64,000 bases of DNA from a virus (Duplodnaviria; Caudoviricetes), in the IMG/VR virus record IMGVR_UViG_3300030202_001666, positions 393 through 64,392 of that record, one strand, 5' to 3'. A model generated the notes under the pieces. It saw nothing but the letters and a program-made list of their open reading frames with translations, had not been told where the DNA came from and ran no database searches. Every line of letters begins with the position of its first letter. Position 1 is the first letter of the stretch. Made by a program: the position numbers and the translations under genes. Shown piece by piece: positions 3,286 to 43,722 of the stretch.

Positions 3286-4113
3286 TTATGGATAACTTTT
3301 CATCACACTACTACCCACGGAATATATCTCAACTGGATCAGTAGAATCGTTTGAAAGTTTGAATTGTAGATAGTACCCACGTGCACCATGAGATTCTGCA
3401 ACAGCGTCTTTAATATACATTATAAACTGCCCAGTAGTAGGAACAGTAGTTCCAACTCCAGTGGTATCTATTGTAATACTATAAGCTCCAGGAGTATTAA
3501 CTACTAATGTTACAACCCCAGCTAATATAGGGGCAGTCGTAGTAACACCACCTGCAACAGTTGCGGCATAAACTGAATCACCTTGGCTTATTATTGAGCC
3601 AACTGGCACATCAAATGTTATTTGAGTAGCTGCGGCAGGTTGCCCACCAGCCACTGTTCCTACACCAATACCATTAGCTGATCTTTGTGCCCAGTTAACT
3701 GTACCGTCATTAGTACGTAAAAACGAAAACCACTCACCCTCTTTTTCTATAAAATAAGTTTCTAACATAGAAGAAGGAGAACCATCAGTTAAGTCTGTAA
3801 ATAATTCTAATGCAGCCCAACGTGCTTGAGATGTATCGGCTACTGTTGTATTAGACTCATATGATAAAGTTTTGAATAATTTTATATCTTCAGTAGGTGT
3901 TGGATTTAAAGCACTGGTTATAGTAGATGCCGTGTATTGCCCATAATATGTGTTACGTAAATTATTAGTGTTATGTCTAAATACATTTCCACCACTAAAA
4001 GTATATAAATAACTATTCATACCTTGAATATATTCTGGTATATACGAATAAAATGATGGCCAACCATTAAATGGCTCTCCTACTGAATATGTTAATGTAT
4101 ACGCTGTTGACAT
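3286..4113 (-). CDS. tail stabilisation (muzzle/P22 gp10-like) protein, C-terminal part
   Basis: TLTYS...GWPSFYSYIPE, KLFKTLSYES, EKEGEWF and GARGYY motifs recalled from the C-terminal region of crAss-like stabilisation proteins. Confidence 0.6.
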   Translation of the reverse strand: MSTAYTLTYSVGEPFNGWPSFYSYIPEYIQGMNSYLYTFSGGNVFRHNTNNLRNTYYGQYTASTITSALNPTPTEDIKLFKTLSYESNTTVADTSQARWAALELFTDLTDGSPSSMLETYFIEKEGEWFSFLRTNDGTVNWAQRSANGIGVGTVAGGQPAAATQITFDVPVGSIISQGDSVYAATVAGGVTTTAPILAGVVTLVVNTPGAYSITIDTTGVGTTVPTTGQFIMYIKDAVAESHGARGYYLQFKLSNDSTDPVEIYSVGSSVMKSYP

Positions 4114-11805: not shown

Positions 11806-12129
11806 TTACGAATTAGGCACTACAATTGAGAATACAATACCTGAGATTGTAACAGCTCCACCAGCCGCATCTTCTAAGCCACTAAGACTTACTTGAATTG
11901 AAGGGTGTTGCCAACTCTGTTGAAGTGATTCTAAAACATAGTCTTGAAACTTGTTTCTTACATCTTCATTGTTCGCTGCCATTACTTCATGAGTAACAGT
12001 TGCTATTGCACCAGATTGATAGTGAAATACACAAGTAGACGTAGAAGCCTGCTCGATCATTACTAAACCATCTAATGCTACCAATTGATTAGCTTCATTT
12101 AGAACTGGAATACTTAAAAACTTTTGCAT
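11806..12129 (-). CDS. hypothetical small structural protein
   Basis: 107 aa ORF with its own promoter and terminator inside the virion module. Confidence 0.55.
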   Translation of the reverse strand: MQKFLSIPVLNEANQLVALDGLVMIEQASTSTCVFHYQSGAIATVTHEVMAANNEDVRNKFQDYVLESLQQSWQHPSIQVSLSGLEDAAGGAVTISGIVFSIVVPNS

Positions 12130-12169
12130 AGTTAAAAAATTTAAGGGTTATGTGAGAAAATACTCGAAA

Positions 12170-12177
12170 CAAAGATA
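12170..12177 (-). promoter_or_regulatory. -7 promoter element TATCTTTG
   Basis: TAnnTTTG match in the intergenic gap upstream of 11806..12129. Confidence 0.6.
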
Positions 12178-12180
12178 ATG

Positions 12181-12939
12181 TTATTTTTCCTTATCTTTCA
12201 AGCGTTTCTTCAAAGCCTTAAATGTCTCTATACCATCCTCTGATTGGAAATAAGAAGCTAAAATAAAATTAGCATCTTCACCAAAAGGAACAGTTAAAAT
12301 TTTCTTTTTATTCTTAGGTAAGTTAAAATACACATCACGTTGATTATTTCTAAACATTATAAAACCTGCGTCAAAAAACTTATATACATCATCTTGTAAT
12401 TCTAACATAGGATCATTTAATGTCTCTAAAAAATCTTCTGGCTCTTGTTTAGCATACAATAAGATATCTCTTTTTATTTCGGTGGTAGACATTTTATCTA
12501 CACCTGAACCTAATAAAATTCTGGATACTGAAAGCATTTTATCTAAACTTAATCCTTTAGCAACTATCTGTGCTTCTAATGATAACTCTACTACCTCTAA
12601 TTCTTCAGCAGCATCTCTTGCGGCATTTACTTCTTCAAACACACTACCATTTTGTGGGTGTAAGTGTAAAAACTTTTGTAACACTTGATTGTTTTTCGGA
12701 ACAAACAAAACACCGTCTTCAAAGACAATTGGCTCTAAAATAGCATTACCATCTTGCTCATCTTCAAATGGAGATTTTTGATTTCTTGCGTAACGCAAAG
12801 GTTTATTAACGCCTTCGGTTTCATCGAAATGTAATAAAGGATATCGTGAGGAGTTTCGAGAAGCCAACATATAAGATAATGGGGCTACCTCTCTTTTTAG
12901 TCTGTAGAATTTATCTACAAATTCTTTTGATTTTTTCAT
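12181..12939 (-). CDS. conserved hypothetical protein downstream of the major capsid gene
   Basis: 252 aa; LRYARNQKSPFEDEQ and LQKFLHLHP motifs; position next to MCP as in crAss-like phages. Confidence 0.6.
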   Translation of the reverse strand: MKKSKEFVDKFYRLKREVAPLSYMLASRNSSRYPLLHFDETEGVNKPLRYARNQKSPFEDEQDGNAILEPIVFEDGVLFVPKNNQVLQKFLHLHPQNGSVFEEVNAARDAAEELEVVELSLEAQIVAKGLSLDKMLSVSRILLGSGVDKMSTTEIKRDILLYAKQEPEDFLETLNDPMLELQDDVYKFFDAGFIMFRNNQRDVYFNLPKNKKKILTVPFGEDANFILASYFQSEDGIETFKALKKRLKDKEK

Positions 12940-12970
12940 TGTAATATAATTTAATTTAATTTAAAATTTA

Positions 12971-13008
12971 TAATAACAAGGGGGGAGATAAACTCCCCCT
13001 TTATTATT
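12971..13008 (-). terminator. terminator/stabilising hairpin after the major capsid gene
   Basis: AAGGGGGGAG-ATAAA-CTCCCCCTTT hairpin with AT-rich flanks. Confidence 0.7.
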
Positions 13009-13016
13009 GAGTAATA

Positions 13017-14492
13017 TTAATTCTGGAATAAGAAGAAGTTGTTTGCACCTAAAGTACATACAGCTCTCTCACTCAAGAAGTTTACTTCCATTGCATCAAG
13101 ATCAGAAGTTCTTGCACCACCAGCAGAACCAGTAATCCAAGTTTTGTATCTTCTGTCTTCTGTTTCAGAAGCTCTATATCTAACGTGTAAGAATGGTCTC
13201 TTTGCGTTCTTACCTAAGATTTGGTCATAAACTGTAGTTGAACCAGCAGGAACTAAAAGTCCATTTACTGCACCACCTACAACATCACCTCTCATAGTAA
13301 CATCGTTTAAGTATTTCCAATCTGACTTGTAGAAGTCATAACCTCTTCTGAATCCAGTGAATCCAAGATTTAAAGCCATTTCTTCATCATTGTCAAATAA
13401 ACCATATGAAGTACCACCAGCTCCGTAAGAGTTTTGTGCTGCTAACATATCGTCAATATCAAATGAGAATTCTCTATTTACAAAAATAACATTTTCTTCA
13501 ATAGAACCTTGCTTATCAAGTCTTTGGATAATGCTATCAAATTGAGATAATACTTGTGGGTTTCCACCGCCCCAAACATTTCCTCTTAATCCAACAACAT
13601 AGAATATACCATCTGAACCATTTAAGTTTGCAGCAGATAATCCAGCACCAACTCCTTGTAAGAAGTCTCCAGCACCAGAAGTTGCGTCTGCAGGTACTGC
13701 TTCAATCATTGCAGTCTCAAGATAATCTTCAAATCTTAATCTTGTTTCATGCTCAGATTTTAAATACCATAGGTATCCAGATGCACCGTTCTCAGTAGTT
13801 ACTTCAACCCATCCAATTTGAGCCATATCAGAACCAGAAACAGAATACTTGTCTTTGATTATAATTGGCTTGTTATCGAAAATAAAGTCATCAGCTTCTA
13901 AAGAACCTACCATTCCATTAGTTCCTTTGTTAAATTCAGAACCATATACAAAAATATCACAAGCTACACCAGCAGCTACTGCTTGTCCACCCGCTTCATA
14001 ATAAGCGATTGAAACTTGGTTTACACCTGTTCCAGCAACAGCGTCACTTGGACCAGCTATTACAATACCTTTGTTAGATAACGTTGATCCAGCAGTTTTG
14101 TCAGAAATCATTACTGTTTGTCCTACTCTTAGAGCAGCAGTATTAGGAGTTCCAGCTAATGCAGGATTAAAGTTAGTAAGGTTGTTAGGTATAGTCCAAA
14201 TTGCATTTCTTGTTGCAGCTCCAGCTCCAGCAGCAGATGTACAGTTTAGATATTTAGTATGTAATCTTCCTTGTTCTGCCCATTTGATAAGGTCAGAATT
14301 AGAAGGCATTTCTGCTCCAACCATTCTTAGGAAGGAAGCAATTGTACGATTGCCATATCTCTCAAACTCTTTTTCATATGTATCAGGTAAGTACTGATTC
14401 AAGAAATCAAAGTCGTTGATATAATTTGTAGACAACGGTACTTGTTGGCTACTTGGTTGCAAATCAAAACCAGGGGTTACATTTACACTCAT
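13017..14492 (-). CDS. major capsid protein
   Basis: 491 aa; FLNQYLPD.YEKEFERYGNR, WAEQGRLH and terminal FLSERAVCTLGANNF motifs; portal-scaffold-MCP order. Confidence 0.85.
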   Translation of the reverse strand: MSVNVTPGFDLQPSSQQVPLSTNYINDFDFLNQYLPDTYEKEFERYGNRTIASFLRMVGAEMPSNSDLIKWAEQGRLHTKYLNCTSAAGAGAATRNAIWTIPNNLTNFNPALAGTPNTAALRVGQTVMISDKTAGSTLSNKGIVIAGPSDAVAGTGVNQVSIAYYEAGGQAVAAGVACDIFVYGSEFNKGTNGMVGSLEADDFIFDNKPIIIKDKYSVSGSDMAQIGWVEVTTENGASGYLWYLKSEHETRLRFEDYLETAMIEAVPADATSGAGDFLQGVGAGLSAANLNGSDGIFYVVGLRGNVWGGGNPQVLSQFDSIIQRLDKQGSIEENVIFVNREFSFDIDDMLAAQNSYGAGGTSYGLFDNDEEMALNLGFTGFRRGYDFYKSDWKYLNDVTMRGDVVGGAVNGLLVPAGSTTVYDQILGKNAKRPFLHVRYRASETEDRRYKTWITGSAGGARTSDLDAMEVNFLSERAVCTLGANNFFLFQN

Positions 14493-37763: not shown

Positions 37764-39389
37764 TTATTTTTTAGTTTCTTCTCTATTTCCAATACGTGCA
37801 TGTGTAACAATTGCGTTAGTGCTTAGTATTGTTGTTGCTACAGAAACTGCATTAATAAGTGCATTCTTTGTAACCTTTAATGGATCAATGATTCCCATTT
37901 TGAACATATCTCCATACTCTTCGTTCTTAACATCATAACCGTAGTTCTTTGTTCCGTAAGGACCTACGCCTAAATTTAATGTTACTGACTCAATATCTTT
38001 TCCTGCATTAATTAATATTTGGTGCAGTGGTGATCTTATTGCTTCACATATTATATCTACTGCTGCATTGTAATCTTCATTGTCTGATCTATCTGCATCT
38101 AAGTCAACAGCTATTTTCCATAATGCTAATCCACCCCCAGGTATTATACCTTCTTCAAGAGCTGAACGAACAGCACACACCGAGTCATCGACTCGGTCAA
38201 ATTTTTCTTTTTGTTCAACGTCAGAGTTTCCACCTACATATATACAACCGATAGCTCCAGCTAAACTTGCTATTCTTTGATTTATAAATTCAATCTCTGC
38301 TGGTCCAGTACAATTACTTTGGTATTCCTTCAGTTCTTGAATACGATTATCAATCTCTTCAGTTAGTGCAGCGTGTTTGATAATAACAGATGAGTTCTTT
38401 CCTACTATTATTTTATCTGCGTATCCAAGATCAGATGGTTGTATTAAACTTAAATCGTCCCCAGTTTTTTCTGAATAGTATTTTGCTCCAACAGATATTG
38501 CAATGTCTTGCATTAGTTCATGTTGTTTATATCCGAAGTTAGGAGGGATGATGTTACACAACTTTAATCCGTTTCGCATAACATTCGCGGCTAAAGTATT
38601 TATAACATTAGTGGAACACGTTCCAATAATTAATAGCTTTTGGTTTTTTTGAATGATTGGTTTTAAAACATTTTCGATTTGTAGTATGTTACTAATCTCA
38701 GTATCACAAACTAATACTTTCACATCTTCCAATATACATTCGTCTTTACGTTGGTTATTTATAAATAGGTTTGAAGTGTAACCTCTATCAATTCTAATTC
38801 CGTTTGTTACTTCCGCGTATGTCTCGGCATTCATAGATTTTTCTACAGTAACAATTCCACTATGACCAACACGGTTGTATGCATCAGAAATAATCTTACC
38901 AATTTCTTTATCACCGTTGGCAGATATAGAAGCAACATCTAATAGTCGAGACTTAGTAATCTTCTTTGATTGTTTTTTTAATTTCGCTAATACTTCCTGG
39001 GTTAATTTATTTATATGTTTTATAACTTCAGTAACATTATGTTTTGGTTTTAAAATTTTATCCCCAGCTTTAATAATGTTTTCAGTTAACACAATTGCAG
39101 TAGTCGTTCCATCACCCGCAACATTGGCAGTACGAAGTGCTGCATCCTTCATCATTTGGATTGCTAAGTTTTCTACGGCATCATCTAAGTATACCGAGTG
39201 TGCAACTGTGACTCCGTCTTTAGTAATTGTTATTCCCGCTAAGTGATCTGTGGATTCTATTAGTACAGTTTTCCCGCGTGGGCCGAGTGTACTCTTTACG
39301 GCTTTAGAAATTTTAGAGATTCCTGAAATTAATTTTTCTCGCCCTTCCTTACCGAAGTCGAGATTCTTTGGTATATATCCTTGTGACAT
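37764..39389 (-). CDS. groEL: chaperonin GroEL (phage-encoded)
   Basis: STLGPRG, ITKDGVTVA, AGDGTTTA, GIIPGGG and GIIDPLKV motifs; no GGM tail. Confidence 0.95.
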   Translation of the reverse strand: MSQGYIPKNLDFGKEGREKLISGISKISKAVKSTLGPRGKTVLIESTDHLAGITITKDGVTVAHSVYLDDAVENLAIQMMKDAALRTANVAGDGTTTAIVLTENIIKAGDKILKPKHNVTEVIKHINKLTQEVLAKLKKQSKKITKSRLLDVASISANGDKEIGKIISDAYNRVGHSGIVTVEKSMNAETYAEVTNGIRIDRGYTSNLFINNQRKDECILEDVKVLVCDTEISNILQIENVLKPIIQKNQKLLIIGTCSTNVINTLAANVMRNGLKLCNIIPPNFGYKQHELMQDIAISVGAKYYSEKTGDDLSLIQPSDLGYADKIIVGKNSSVIIKHAALTEEIDNRIQELKEYQSNCTGPAEIEFINQRIASLAGAIGCIYVGGNSDVEQKEKFDRVDDSVCAVRSALEEGIIPGGGLALWKIAVDLDADRSDNEDYNAAVDIICEAIRSPLHQILINAGKDIESVTLNLGVGPYGTKNYGYDVKNEEYGDMFKMGIIDPLKVTKNALINAVSVATTILSTNAIVTHARIGNREETKK

Positions 39390-39418
39390 TATAGTGAAAT
39401 TAATTTAAATTAGTTAAG

Positions 39419-39426
39419 CAAATATA
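39419..39426 (-). promoter_or_regulatory. -7 promoter element TATATTTG for groEL
   Basis: TAnnTTTG match 30 nt upstream of the ATG. Confidence 0.6.
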
Positions 39427-39439
39427 TAAAATATAATTT

Positions 39440-39640
39440 ACTCTTTGTGTTTGTTATGTTTGTTTTTTTTTATTTATATAGATATATATATTTATTAACA
39501 CATATATATATTTATCCCTACTCTTTTTATTATTAAAATGAGCATTTTGAACATAAATAAAATAAAGTATTGATTATCAGTTATTTAACTTGTGTTCGTT
39601 TTAAATAAAATAAACACAACTGTGTTTGATACAAACATTA
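39440..39640. repeat. AT-rich origin-like element, copy 1
   Basis: TGTGTT/AACA-type motifs flanking an AT tract; shares 15-mer and 19-mer blocks with 47700-47887. Confidence 0.5.
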
Positions 39641-39713
39641 ATTACAAAAAAAAAGGAAGCTCAACATGAACCTCCTCTTTTCGCATGATCAAAACAGAAC
39701 AATCGGGAAAGTT

Positions 39714-40450: not shown

Positions 40451-40798
40451 ATGAACACAAAAAACACGTTAGAAATAACACAAAATCAAACAAGCGTTAA
40501 ACACGCAAATGACTATGCATTCGTTGAATCAGAAGCTATCATCAAATTCAATTATTACGCTAACAATTTTCACTATGATTTCATCCAATTAGTTTGGGGT
40601 GAGGATACAAGTTTATCCAACCACCTACAATCAAAGTGGGATGTATTAGTGTCACAATTGACTAATGCAAGAAAAGAGTCAGACAATAGATTCGTAACGA
40701 ATTTAACTGGAACGACTTTGTTCTACAAGTTCTATATGATGCTTGATACCTACAACAAGTACAAATTAAATAACTTTATTCTTAACTCTAAAATTTAA
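40451..40798 (+). CDS. hypothetical early protein
   Basis: 115 aa with an A-rich leader. Confidence 0.6.
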   Translation: MNTKNTLEITQNQTSVKHANDYAFVESEAIIKFNYYANNFHYDFIQLVWGEDTSLSNHLQSKWDVLVSQLTNARKESDNRFVTNLTGTTLFYKFYMMLDTYNKYKLNNFILNSKI

Positions 40799-40803
40799 TA
40801 ATT

Positions 40804-41370
40804 ATGAAAACTATAAAACACACAATATTCAAACAATTATCAGTAAACTTCGGTTTCCAAAAATTCACTCGTAGAGATATCCAAAAAGCAATTTGGATTG
40901 CTCAAAACAAGGACATCAAAACATTCGTGCTCAGACAAGGTTACTACGCAATCAATATTCAAAACTGGGTAGAGTATGAAAAACTACTTGAAAGAGTAGG
41001 AAGAGGAGTGTATGTGTTAACAGATAACGGATATAGATTCGGTAAAGGCACATATAAACAAGGCGTAAAACTCATCCGTAAAATCAATCAAGACAGAAAG
41101 GATGCGAGAGCAAAAGCGAGAGAGGAACGTAACAATCTACCTCACATTAAACACGCAAAACAATTTCAACATTTCGTTGGAAAGACAATTGTTTCTGTGA
41201 GATATGCAACTCCAATTGAATGTTCAGAATTAGGTTGGAACAAATCGCCAATTGTATTTCACTTGTCAGATGGTACAACTATGTTTCCTCAATGCGATGA
41301 TGAAGGAAATGATGGTGGTGCAATGGCAATCCAAAAATTCAACGAATGGGATGTAGCATACACGATTTAG
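40804..41370 (+). CDS. hypothetical early protein (possible N-terminal winged helix)
   Basis: LLERVGRGVYVLT wing motif; C-terminal DDEGNDGG domain. Confidence 0.6.
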   Translation: MKTIKHTIFKQLSVNFGFQKFTRRDIQKAIWIAQNKDIKTFVLRQGYYAINIQNWVEYEKLLERVGRGVYVLTDNGYRFGKGTYKQGVKLIRKINQDRKDARAKAREERNNLPHIKHAKQFQHFVGKTIVSVRYATPIECSELGWNKSPIVFHLSDGTTMFPQCDDEGNDGGAMAIQKFNEWDVAYTI

Positions 41371-41419
41371 TTAACTGATGATTCCTTAAGGATGAAACGC
41401 ACTTCGGTGCGTATTAACT
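41369..41419 (+). ncRNA. type I hammerhead ribozyme 1
   Basis: stem I AGUUAA/UUAACU; core CUGAUGA (41375-81); stem II UCC-UUAA-GGA with a U.U closing pair; GAAA (41394-97); stem III CGCAC-UUCG-GUGCG; GUA cleavage triplet ending at 41413. Confidence 0.85.
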
Positions 41420-41445
41420 TAATAATAATTAAAAACAATACAATT

Positions 41446-41925
41446 ATGGGACAATATTTTAAAGTCGTAAACAAAACCAAGAAAGAGTATTTATCTCCTT
41501 ACACTTTCGGTAATGGTGCAAAAATGTGGGAGATAGTTGCAAGTGGCAAAGGAGTTCTACAAGGACTCGGATTATTACTTGCCGAAGGACACTACATTGA
41601 TGGTGATGAAACTCCAACGCATAAATCTCTAATAGGTAGATGGGTTGGTGATTCAATAACTATGGTTGGTGATTATGCTAAGAGTGAATTGTATCACAAA
41701 TGTGAGAAGTCACCTTACAAAGACATCTCAATGGATGTAGCGAGAGAGTTGTACAAAGACTCTTGGATTGGTAATCAAAAGAGAAAGTATTGTAAAGAAC
41801 ACGGAACTCAATGGTTCTTTGGTGATGAAAAAGATTTGATGTTGGAACTATTTCCACTTGAATGTCACGAAGGTGATTTGAGACAGAAGTTTGACTTTGT
41901 TGAAAAAGAACAATCTGATGAGTAA
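41446..41925 (+). CDS. hypothetical early protein flanked by hammerheads (MGQYFKVVN...)
   Basis: likely start 41446 after an A-rich leader; MGQY..VN...EY, GRW.GD...VGDY pattern. Confidence 0.7.
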   Translation: MGQYFKVVNKTKKEYLSPYTFGNGAKMWEIVASGKGVLQGLGLLLAEGHYIDGDETPTHKSLIGRWVGDSITMVGDYAKSELYHKCEKSPYKDISMDVARELYKDSWIGNQKRKYCKEHGTQWFFGDEKDLMLELFPLECHEGDLRQKFDFVEKEQSDE

Positions 41926-41971
41926 AGGTTTAAACACCTACGAAACTCCCATTGATTTGGGAGTAATTGTT
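41909..41971 (+). ncRNA. type I hammerhead ribozyme 2
   Basis: stem I AACAAU/AUUGUU; core CUGAUGA (41915-21); stem II GUA(AA)GGU...ACCUAC; GAAA (41942-45); stem III CUCCCA...UGGGAG; GUA cleavage triplet ending at 41965. Confidence 0.9.
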
Positions 41972-41990
41972 TAATATAAAATATAATAAA

Positions 41991-42440
41991 ATGAAACACA
42001 TTGAAACGCTTAAAGAACAACTTGATATAGTTGTGAATAAAGCATACACGGAAATCCTTGATGATTATCCTACTGACCAACGAGAGCAACTACCTCATAG
42101 TTTTGAAGAGTTGCACGAACAATGCGATGCAAATGAATACATCGCAGATTACATCGCAGATTTGACTGGTGACATAGGTAATTATTTAATCTCTGAAATT
42201 AATATACGACTCAAAGCTGAGGATAGATCCAAATATAAACGGACAACAAAGCAAGTGATAGCAGAACAACAAGCTATCAATAGAAAGCTAAGGGATAAAG
42301 AAAATCCAGGAGAAGAAAAGATGGATTTAATAGAAGCAATCAGATATGAATTGAAAGAGTATGGTTGGGATTGTCAAACATCTAATCCACCAAGTCCATT
42401 TGAATTCATTAGAAAAATAGATAACATAATAAATAAATAA
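41991..42440 (+). CDS. hypothetical early protein
   Basis: likely start MKHIET at 41991; SFEELHEQCDANEY motif. Confidence 0.6.
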   Translation: MKHIETLKEQLDIVVNKAYTEILDDYPTDQREQLPHSFEELHEQCDANEYIADYIADLTGDIGNYLISEINIRLKAEDRSKYKRTTKQVIAEQQAINRKLRDKENPGEEKMDLIEAIRYELKEYGWDCQTSNPPSPFEFIRKIDNIINK

Positions 42441-42441
42441 T

Positions 42442-42639
42442 ATGGCAAATTTAAGTTATTGCAGATTTCAAAATACTGCACGAGATTTAAGTGATTGCGT
42501 TGAAGCAATCGACAATCACGAAATTGACATTGAAACAATTAGTGATAGTGAAATAGAAGGACTACGTTGCTTACTGATTCTGGCAAGGGAAGTTCTGGAT
42601 AGAGAAACAGAAATAGAATCAATAATCGAAAACACATAA
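42442..42639 (+). CDS. hypothetical early protein
   Basis: MANLSYCRFQNT..DL.DC N-terminus, seen in many small phage proteins. Confidence 0.65.
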   Translation: MANLSYCRFQNTARDLSDCVEAIDNHEIDIETISDSEIEGLRCLLILAREVLDRETEIESIIENT

Positions 42640-42641
42640 TT

Positions 42642-42764
42642 ATGAAAGATATGATTAAGTATATTAAAGAGAATCCGACTGATGCACTTTGCGACATCGC
42701 ATTCCTTTTAATATTAGGGCTTATATTTTATGTAAGCATTTGGACATTCTGTCCTTGTCCTTAA
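42642..42764 (+). CDS. small membrane protein missed by the track (40 aa)
   Basis: MKDMIKYIKENPTDALCDIAFLLILGLIFYVSIWTFCPCP*. Confidence 0.5.
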   Translation: MKDMIKYIKENPTDALCDIAFLLILGLIFYVSIWTFCPCP

Positions 42765-42778
42765 CGATATTCGTTAAA

Positions 42779-42837
42779 CACCCTCGCCTCCTCTCATTAA
42801 TTTGTTAGGGGGTTTTGGTGGTAGAGGGCTATTCCTC
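42779..42837 (+). other. structured intergenic element, copy A
   Basis: CCUC...GGGG hairpin + UUUUGGUGGUA + GAGGG-CUAU-UCCUC hairpin. Confidence 0.55.
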
Positions 42838-42858
42838 GCACAATTAAAATTAAATAAA

Positions 42859-43038
42859 ATGATAACAGAAACTTTAAAACAATTTTTAAAAGATGATTTA
42901 GTAAAATTAGATTATCATACAAACGAACTAATAGATAATCTAATAGTAAGAGGTGTTGATCAAGAATTTAAAAAAGATATTGAACAAATACAACAAATTC
43001 TTAACTATTGGCATCAACACTTAAAAAATATAAAATAA
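42859..43038 (+). CDS. hypothetical protein
   Basis: likely ATG at 42859 after an A-rich leader. Confidence 0.55.
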   Translation: MITETLKQFLKDDLVKLDYHTNELIDNLIVRGVDQEFKKDIEQIQQILNYWHQHLKNIK

Positions 43039-43053
43039 TTAAATTAAATAGAT

Positions 43054-43722
43054 ATGAAAATTTTAGAACTATTCAGTGGTTCACGTAGTTTAGGAAAATC
43101 GGCAGAAGCAAGAGGACACAAAGTGTTTTCCTCAGATTTCCAGGAGTTCCCAAACACCGATTATGTTGTAGACATTTTAGAGTTCAATCCAAAGAAAGTT
43201 CCGTTCAAAAGAGTGGATATGATTTGGGCATCACCACCTTGTGAAAGTTTCAGTGTTGCTTCAATTGGAAGACATTGGATTAAAGGTGAAGTGTTTACAC
43301 CAAAAACTGACAATGCAAAATTAGGTATTCAATTACTAATGAAAACTATGGAGTTGATTGAGTACTATAAAAAGAAAAATCCAAACCTAATTTGGTACGT
43401 GGAAAACCCACGTGGAAAAATGAGAAAATCTCCTCACTGGTCAGAAATAGAACATAAATTAAATGGGGTTACTTACTGCCAATATGGTGACACAAGAATG
43501 AAACCAACAGACATTTGGAATAATAATCCTATGTGGATTTCACGACCAATGTGTAAGAACGGAAGCCCTTGTCATACTCCAGCTCCACGTGGATCTTCGA
43601 CTGGGACTCAAGGAATTAAGTCCTATTATGACAAGAGTAAAATCCCATCAGAACTTTGTGATGAGGTAATTGAAGCGACAGAAAGATTGTATAATCGTGT
43701 CTATTTATATGACACATTTTAA
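43054..43722 (+). CDS. short C5 DNA cytosine methyltransferase-like protein
   Basis: motif I LELFSG, motif IV WASPPC, motif VI VENP. Confidence 0.8.
   Translation: MKILELFSGSRSLGKSAEARGHKVFSSDFQEFPNTDYVVDILEFNPKKVPFKRVDMIWASPPCESFSVASIGRHWIKGEVFTPKTDNAKLGIQLLMKTMELIEYYKKKNPNLIWYVENPRGKMRKSPHWSEIEHKLNGVTYCQYGDTRMKPTDIWNNNPMWISRPMCKNGSPCHTPAPRGSSTGTQGIKSYYDKSKIPSELCDEVIEATERLYNRVYLYDTF

Follow-up and report, generated by a model that had tools for sequence, protein, structure and literature searches.

Two type I hammerhead ribozymes around a single gene of an uncultured marine tailed phage, and their probable role as intercistronic punctuation

Why would a tailed phage place a self-cleaving ribozyme motif on either side of one small gene? 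The question is raised by a stretch of 64,000 nucleotides (nt), hereafter called the window, which covers nearly all of the 64,392-base-pair (bp) virus record IMGVR_UViG_3300030202_001666 (Duplodnaviria; Caudoviricetes), derived from marine metagenomes. Here two hammerhead motifs, HH1 and HH2, flank an open reading frame (ORF) of 159 amino acids (aa), ORF159, on the plus strand. A sequence-only reading had proposed that both are type I hammerheads with the same sense as the gene between them, and this is confirmed by the sequence itself, by a structural descriptor, by shuffled sequences, by a covariance model that had not seen HH2, and by covariation among relatives. HH1 and HH2 are genuine hammerheads and not products of chance. 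We further consider it probable, at roughly 0.7, that they are functional ribozymes which punctuate a plus-strand operon of this phage between its cistrons. The features on which the argument depends are the following.

40804-41370, plus strand: upstream ORF of 188 aa, assigned to no family and ending in TAG (41368-41370), a stop codon that shares bases with the start of HH1.
41369-41419, plus strand: HH1, type I hammerhead, read from the sequence and supported by the descriptor, shuffles and model R2.
41413/41414, plus strand: predicted cleavage site 1, after A17 of the GUA triplet, placed by the hammerhead consensus.
41414-41965, plus strand: predicted excised RNA of 552 nt, comprising a 32-nt AU-rich leader, ORF159 and HH2 up to the cut.
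41446-41925, plus strand: ORF159, 159 aa, a conserved marine-phage protein with 40 homologues, none of them named.
41908-41972, plus strand: HH2, type I hammerhead, read from the sequence and supported by the descriptor and models R1 and R2.
41965/41966, plus strand: predicted cleavage site 2, after A17 of the GUA triplet, placed by the hammerhead consensus.
41991-42440, plus strand: downstream ORF of 149 aa, assigned to no family, with its ATG 25 nt past cut 2.

The predicted cuts after 41413 and 41965 are 552 nt apart (41965 - 41413), and our coordinates thus agree with the earlier proposal that they frame an RNA of this length holding the leader and the whole of the ORF.

In both motifs stems II and III are closed and stem I is open, which is the type I topology, and in both the core C3 U4 G5 A6 N7 G8 A9 together with G12 A13 A14 is complete and correctly placed. 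Stem I of HH1 pairs 41369-41374 with 41414-41419 (6 bp), and the core elements CUGAUGA and GAA lie at 41375-41381 and 41394-41396; the stem II hairpin (41382-41393) has 3 bp and a closing U10.1.U11.1 mismatch, while the stem III hairpin (41397-41412) has 6 bp and a UUCG loop and is followed by the cleavage nucleotide A17 at 41413. HH2 pairs 41908-41914 with 41966-41972 in stem I (7 bp, one of them G.U) and carries CUGAUGA at 41915-41921 and GAA at 41942-41944; its stem II (41922-41941) opens on a G10.1-C11.1 pair and consists of 3 bp, an AA bulge and another 3 bp, and its stem III (41945-41964, 7 bp) leads to A17 at 41965. The A15.1-U16.1 pair and a non-G cleavage nucleotide are found in both (A41397-U41412 then A41413; A41945-U41964 then A41965), as is the cleavage triplet GUA, and the two motifs differ in sequence in all three helices. 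The minimum-energy fold of each motif in isolation is the three-helix hammerhead shape. HH2 also overlaps the gene that it follows: the last five sense codons of ORF159 (41908-41922) supply the 5' strand of stem I, all of the core and the base with which stem II begins, and the stop codon (41923-41925) falls within stem II.

How often such motifs would be expected by chance was assessed with a descriptor that requires CUGANGA, a closed stem II, GAAA, a closed stem III ending in U, a non-G nucleotide and an open stem I. On both strands of the 64-kilobase (kb) window, that is over 128 kb, it has exactly two matches, HH1 and HH2, and both lie between plus-strand genes. In 300 dinucleotide-preserving shuffles of the window it found no match with stems of at least 5/3/5 and a single one with stems of at least 4/3/4. 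A descriptor for type II hammerheads matched 41867-41923 (plus strand) and 3884-3992 (minus strand); these candidates were set aside, as they appear at loosened stringency only and have a stem II of 2-3 bp and stems I and III of 4-5 bp.

For comparison we collected relatives, defined as IMG/VR contigs with ORF159 homologues (L-numbers denote loci and G-numbers records). A MAFFT alignment of all 13 hammerheads misplaced the 3' halves, and the first covariance model, R1, was therefore built from three equal-length copies, namely HH1 and two relatives only, with HH2 left out. R1 nonetheless recovers HH2 at 31.4 bits (E 2.8e-8, filters off), and the next match in the window scores 11.6 bits. A second model, R2, for which the long-stem "d" copies were dropped before building because R1 misaligned them, gives scores of 48.5 bits for HH1 and 51.2 bits for HH2; it also has weak matches, of 20.2 and 13.9 bits, in a 185-kb record (G004).

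The helices are also supported by the pattern of substitution. Over 13 distinct sequences 96.2% of pair cells are paired, compared with 27-38% when the partners are slid, two-sided changes occur in 13 of the 16 pairs, and the observed covariation score was reached by none of 500 shuffles; fitting the alignment to the model works in favour of the structure, yet the margin is wide. Compensatory changes in stem III separate HH1 from its close relatives L003_a and L004_a, and they are likewise found among the HH2 orthologues of L002, L008, L024 and L029. The sole core base that varies among the relatives collected with the descriptor is position 7, the other core bases being required by the descriptor itself. 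Because compensatory changes maintain the three helices around a constant unpaired core, selection acts on the RNA structure and not on DNA repeats. As judged from these alignments, both motifs are hammerheads under selection, with the same sense as the genes. Stem II of HH2 is nearly invariant across the same four loci, which hints at a constraint beyond pairing.

The sequence-only reading had asked whether homologues of the ORF are flanked by ribozymes as well, and in other phage contigs (L002-L008, L024, L025 and L029) they are. A hammerhead adjoins the ORF159 homologue in seven of seven loci from L002 to L008. Four hammerheads stand in series within ~2 kb in the G001 lineage (L003-L007); L002 has a downstream hammerhead only, and its ORF159 homologue comes straight after another ORF; in L008 a type III candidate lies upstream and an HH2 orthologue downstream. 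A further 17 loci (84,811 bases) were searched with the descriptor and four were positive (one hammerhead in L024, three of type III in L025, two in L029 and one in L031), and a model search of 16 of these 17 loci confirmed the type I copies. When whole records were searched, type I copies proved to be confined to this region, with two in G000, four in G001, two in G002 and one in the partial record G003. The overlap between the 3' end of the ORF and HH2 (offset -18) is kept in L002, L008, L024 and L029.

The type III candidates that adjoin ORF159 homologues are located at 2103-2151, 2424-2474 and 3575-3624 in L025 and at 2927-2975 in L008. The open stem III is identical across the three copies of L025, and the copies at L025 2103-2151 and L008 2927-2975 have a 2-bp stem II closed by an A.A mismatch, with a GAAA loop.

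The gene order around ORF159 is a mosaic among the relatives, while ORF159 and HH2 remain together. Homologues of the genes at 40451, 40804 and 42442 and of the methyltransferase gene at 43054 stand in varying order around the ORF159 homologue when 40451-43722 is compared with L002, L008, L024 and L029; those of the 40804 ORF vary in their position relative to it in L002, L024 and L029. Judged from these comparisons, the mosaic points to a shuffling of single-gene units at hammerhead borders. It could also be taken to mean that the motifs matter mainly as DNA modules which promote such shuffling, or that they are terminator or stabiliser hairpins which resemble hammerheads by accident. ORF159 and HH2 do travel as a unit, stem III of HH2 was detected in a terminator-like scan, and neighbouring copies can have modules in common: in L005, stem II is common to copies c and d, and stems I and III are common to copies b and c. 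Neither DNA modules nor accidental hairpins would, however, account for three helices that are all kept by compensatory changes around a fixed unpaired core, and the chance expectation is near zero. In addition, the shared segments are probably too short for homologous recombination, and the stem III hairpin of HH2 is followed by AAUUGUUUAA, with no clean U-run. We regard this explanation as very improbable.

What, then, do the two hammerheads do? The placement of such motifs was scored for a non-redundant set of 34 type I and five type III hammerheads from 16 records. An ATG-initiated ORF of at least 40 aa begins 20-37 nt past the cut in 26 of the 34 type I copies (median 24.5). An upstream ORF stops within 200 nt of 36 of the 39 copies, and the first base of 33 of these 36 hammerheads falls in the interval from 20 nt before the stop to 22 nt past it. 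The script scored HH1 at 577 nt on the basis of the in-frame ATG 41392, but measured to the conserved start at 41446 the spacing is 32 nt. The latter start is backed by a conserved N-terminus in five of five aligned homologues, and the list of ORFs also allows a longer frame from ATG 41392, which lies inside HH1. In several arrays of hammerheads the upstream stop codon forms the last three bases of the 5' strand of stem I (offset -6). It is because the placement between a stop codon and the next ATG is so regular that we read the hammerheads as punctuation marks between cistrons. For HH1 and HH2 alike, the motif, its significance, its conservation, its covariation and its position are demonstrated by these data.

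We suggest the following course of events. Each motif would fold and cut itself, after 41413 and after 41965, as the RNA polymerase passes, so that the polycistronic transcript would be split and the ORF159 message would become a monocistronic RNA of 552 nt. This RNA would begin with a hydroxyl 32 nt before its start codon and would end in the compact HH2 fold with a 2',3'-cyclic phosphate, while the message of the downstream gene would have its start codon 25 nt past its own 5'-hydroxyl end. The short AU-rich stem I (6-7 bp) would dissociate after the cut, leaving an unstructured leader. Each cistron would thereby be given its own ends, and hence its own stability and translation rate, without the help of host ribonucleases, which is the benefit that we think likely. 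Ribosomes should compete with the folding of HH2, given that the ORF159 reading frame ends within this motif. We infer that cleavage would take place in vivo, with the end chemistry given here and with effects on stability and translation; for prophages, tandem hammerheads have been reported to cleave in vitro, and one set to do so in Escherichia coli (PMC3088659).

Several observations weigh against this interpretation. ORF159 does not need a hammerhead, because its homologues in L026, L027, L028, L030 and L032 have none within the fetched flanks; distant ORF159 homologues likewise have none within the flanks fetched. The cleavage triplet is GUA in HH1 and HH2, whereas most relatives have GUC, and HH1 has U.U in place of the G10.1-C11.1 pair that its closest relatives keep and that is G-C in HH2. 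Adding flanking sequence leads to competing folds, with predicted minimum-energy folds that have no stem I, and no tertiary contact between stem I and loop II was identified in either motif, no such contact having been modelled. At the Rfam gathering score the whole window has no match, no hammerhead family is found in 41300-42050 at an Rfam E of 10 or below, and RF00163 searched against the genome gives HH1 10.4 bits (cut-off 34) and leaves HH2 unreported. The sole RNA-library contig near a cut, 41243-41428, extends 15 nt past cut 1, although this is less than our bridging rule of 31 nt and the contig is possibly DNA carry-over.

With regard to Rfam, the covariance search that the sequence-only reading had recommended came out in two ways: the Rfam models stayed below their cut-off, whereas the model built from HH1 and its relatives found HH2. 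The Rfam miss reflects the training set of these models and not the definition of the ribozyme. As for transcripts, the stretch is found in marine DNA runs of several studies, and four RNA libraries hold small shares of it only. From these libraries, six short contigs fall in a 2.6-kb stretch, without joints or end pile-ups, and they are too few to count either way; since RNA-library contigs show neither ends nor strands, we give them no weight for or against cleavage or circles.

The mismatch in HH1 leads to a second explanation, namely that HH2 alone is active and HH1 is a decaying copy, so that ORF159 would have a defined 3' end and the next gene a defined 5' end, with no excised cassette. 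U.U in HH1 stands at the most conserved pair of stem II, where related copies that share the stem III hairpin have kept G-C; L002 has retained just the downstream hammerhead; and HH2-type copies are the most constant partner of ORF159 (L002, L008, L024, L029). On the other hand, U10.1.U11.1 is described as a natural hammerhead variant, the best-tolerated mispair, and is reported to be active in natural hammerheads (PMC3088659). HH1 has moreover retained all core bases, with stems I and III of 6 bp each, and it sits exactly between a stop codon and a 32-nt leader, as active-looking relatives do. We therefore think it unlikely that HH1 is a decaying copy, and prefer to see both motifs as functional punctuation.

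Could the excised RNA have a further fate? The sequence-only reading had proposed that it might be circularised. Hammerhead cleavage leaves a 5'-OH and a 2',3'-cyclic phosphate, the end chemistry used by RtcB, and a host RtcB-type ligase might thus join the 552-nt RNA end to end, which would yield a circular, nuclease-resistant mRNA unable to re-cleave. Some relatives have a geometry that would suit such a reaction, with an identical open helix on either side of the homologous ORF (5/5 pairs from copy b to copy c in L005, and 5/5 in the type III series of L025); there the excised RNA could rebuild a full hammerhead across its ends, as in viroids and retrozymes, and arrays with a uniform open helix are present in other marine phage contigs as well. 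At the present locus, however, the proposal finds no support. The stem I sequences are unrelated, and as had been foreseen, a junction of 41965 to 41414 would not rebuild a hammerhead, with 0/7 pairs between the ends in hammerhead register. When the whole 552-nt RNA is folded, only a weak 5-bp contact between the ends is predicted, at an ensemble frequency near 0. The RtcB family is absent from the phage record (CheckV 100% complete), the search having covered this family of RNA ligases and no other. Any circle formed here would need a host ligase. Spliced or circular products of tandem prophage hammerheads were sought by others and none was detected, as stated with data not shown (PMC3088659), and no title or abstract found in our literature search reports a phage hammerhead circle. 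A circle at this locus is, in our view, decidedly unlikely.

Further arrays of hammerheads came to light in a pattern search for HH1-like copies. It returned 14 loci, 13 of which hold hammerheads by the descriptor, and in 10 of those 13 there is a same-strand series of at least two and up to five. Marine phage contigs with same-strand arrays of 2-5 type I hammerheads include L042 (1258-2955), L054 (138-2400), L051 (7239-9982), L053 (12091-13246) and L049 (9254-9524). Some of the arrays repeat one and the same open stem I from copy to copy, although their closed stems II and III have diverged with compensatory changes. Differing bases number 0/100 in stem I, 14/80 in stem II and 38/80 in stem III for the L042 array, and 4/100, 42/80 and 59/80, respectively, for the L054 array. 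The same uniform pattern is seen in L049, in the two copies on either side of the ORF159 homologue in the G001 lineage, and in the three type III copies of L025; the arrays of the window, L029 and L041 are heterogeneous. In L053 a hammerhead at 14172-14222 (plus strand) is opposite in sense to the other four (12091-13246, minus strand) and shares its open helix with three of these; it may mark divergent operons.

Because neighbouring copies share an identical open helix, every gene-length RNA excised from a uniform array could, as far as its sequence goes, reconstitute a hammerhead where its own ends, or those of another segment, meet. This would allow hammerhead arrays to do more than cut, with ligation giving circular translatable or re-assorted mRNAs, and the ORF159 cassette would then be a member whose ribozymes have diverged. 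We think this quite unlikely, and plainer accounts of a uniform stem I can be given: in several arrays the upstream stop codon supplies the last three bases of the 5' strand, a common stem I would provide all downstream messages with the same 5' end, and the copies of an array are paralogues. The uniform arrays of the relatives are nonetheless the most promising lead.

The cargo offers no clue as to why this gene is bracketed, because ORF159 has no family, no functional name and no match among solved structures. Its family comprises at least 40 clusters, drawn from metagenomes of marine and other origin and all lacking a functional name, and it belongs to no Pfam family and to no PHROG family. 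In a sequence-profile search of the PDB the best match has an E of only 0.27. The AlphaFold model is confident (pLDDT, the predicted local distance difference test score, 83). Compared with the PDB, this model has no Foldseek match at an E of 0.001 or below, and the best VIA-align Z is 3.7; in BFVD it matches only uncharacterised phage proteins, one of which is labelled SWIM-type domain-containing.

The record has a G+C content of ~33% and a CheckV completeness of 100%. A divergent gap near 39,400-39,660 is followed by the plus-strand block of small genes to which ORF159 belongs. Because a DNA methyltransferase and a Sak-like annealing protein are encoded in the same block, it resembles an operon for early functions or DNA metabolism; the early timing, like the processing without RNase III put forward by the sequence-only reading, is a supposition. 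A similarity search of 40800-42500 against the phages collection gave zero matches. On the other side of the gap, the minus strand encodes a phage chaperonin of the Cpn60/TCP-1 family (37764-39389, 541 aa, Pfam E 1.6e-60), which is transcribed away from the hammerhead operon.

The arrangement itself has already been described in other phages, and the ORF159 locus adds a further case. Hammerheads flanking single prophage genes are reported by Perreault et al. 2011 (PLoS Comput Biol, PMC3088659), in a paper which proposes that long phage transcripts are processed into single-gene mRNAs and which also raises the idea of circles or splicing. The clusters described there resemble ours in that several close hammerheads of the same sense bracket single genes or short blocks of varying identity; the proposed role in the processing of single-gene mRNAs is the same, and the U10.1.U11.1 variant occurs in both. 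The examples given there are from prophages of Clostridium scindens, Azorhizobium caulinodans and Agrobacterium tumefaciens and include type II hammerheads, whereas here we have a minimal type I pair in an uncultured marine phage. Unlike in those clusters, another gene family is flanked here, one motif overlaps the end of a coding sequence, and HH1 and HH2 score below the cut-off of Rfam models that go back to alignments of that era. As the Rfam hammerhead models miss such minimal hammerheads of marine phages, the frequency of hammerheads in viromes is probably underestimated.

Viroids, satellite RNAs and retrozymes (PMC7761336, PMC6765202) provide a second comparison. In these systems, too, two cuts of the same sense release a unit-length RNA with 5'-OH and 2',3'-cyclic phosphate ends, as predicted here, and the open helix that flanking copies have in common in some relatives of the phage is reminiscent of viroid and retrozyme repeat units. 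The flanking copies of viroids and retrozymes are described as being of one sequence, so that the excised RNA rebuilds the ribozyme and the ligated circle is replicated or reverse-transcribed (PMC7761336, PMC6765202). In the phage, by contrast, the three helices differ and the predicted excised RNA would be an ordinary protein-coding message of a DNA phage. The relatives with a homogenised open helix are a concrete place in which to look for the circular or joined RNAs that the 2011 study had failed to detect. A third parallel is given by ribozymes in the 5' untranslated regions of RNA viruses (PMC13725137), where a type I hammerhead also lies shortly upstream of the coding region and the RNA to be translated owes its 5' end to the cut. 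The subject there is cap-independent translation in plants and fungi; here a 5'-OH leader might act on bacterial initiation.

A 2019 review (PMC6765202) describes what hammerheads do for bacteria and phages as still largely elusive. The ORF159 locus and its relatives form a compact and regular test system, with a ribozyme at the stop codon, a cut 20-37 nt before the next start and one overlap with a coding end, in which it is simple to ask whether cutting by ribozymes sets the stability or the translation of phage mRNAs.

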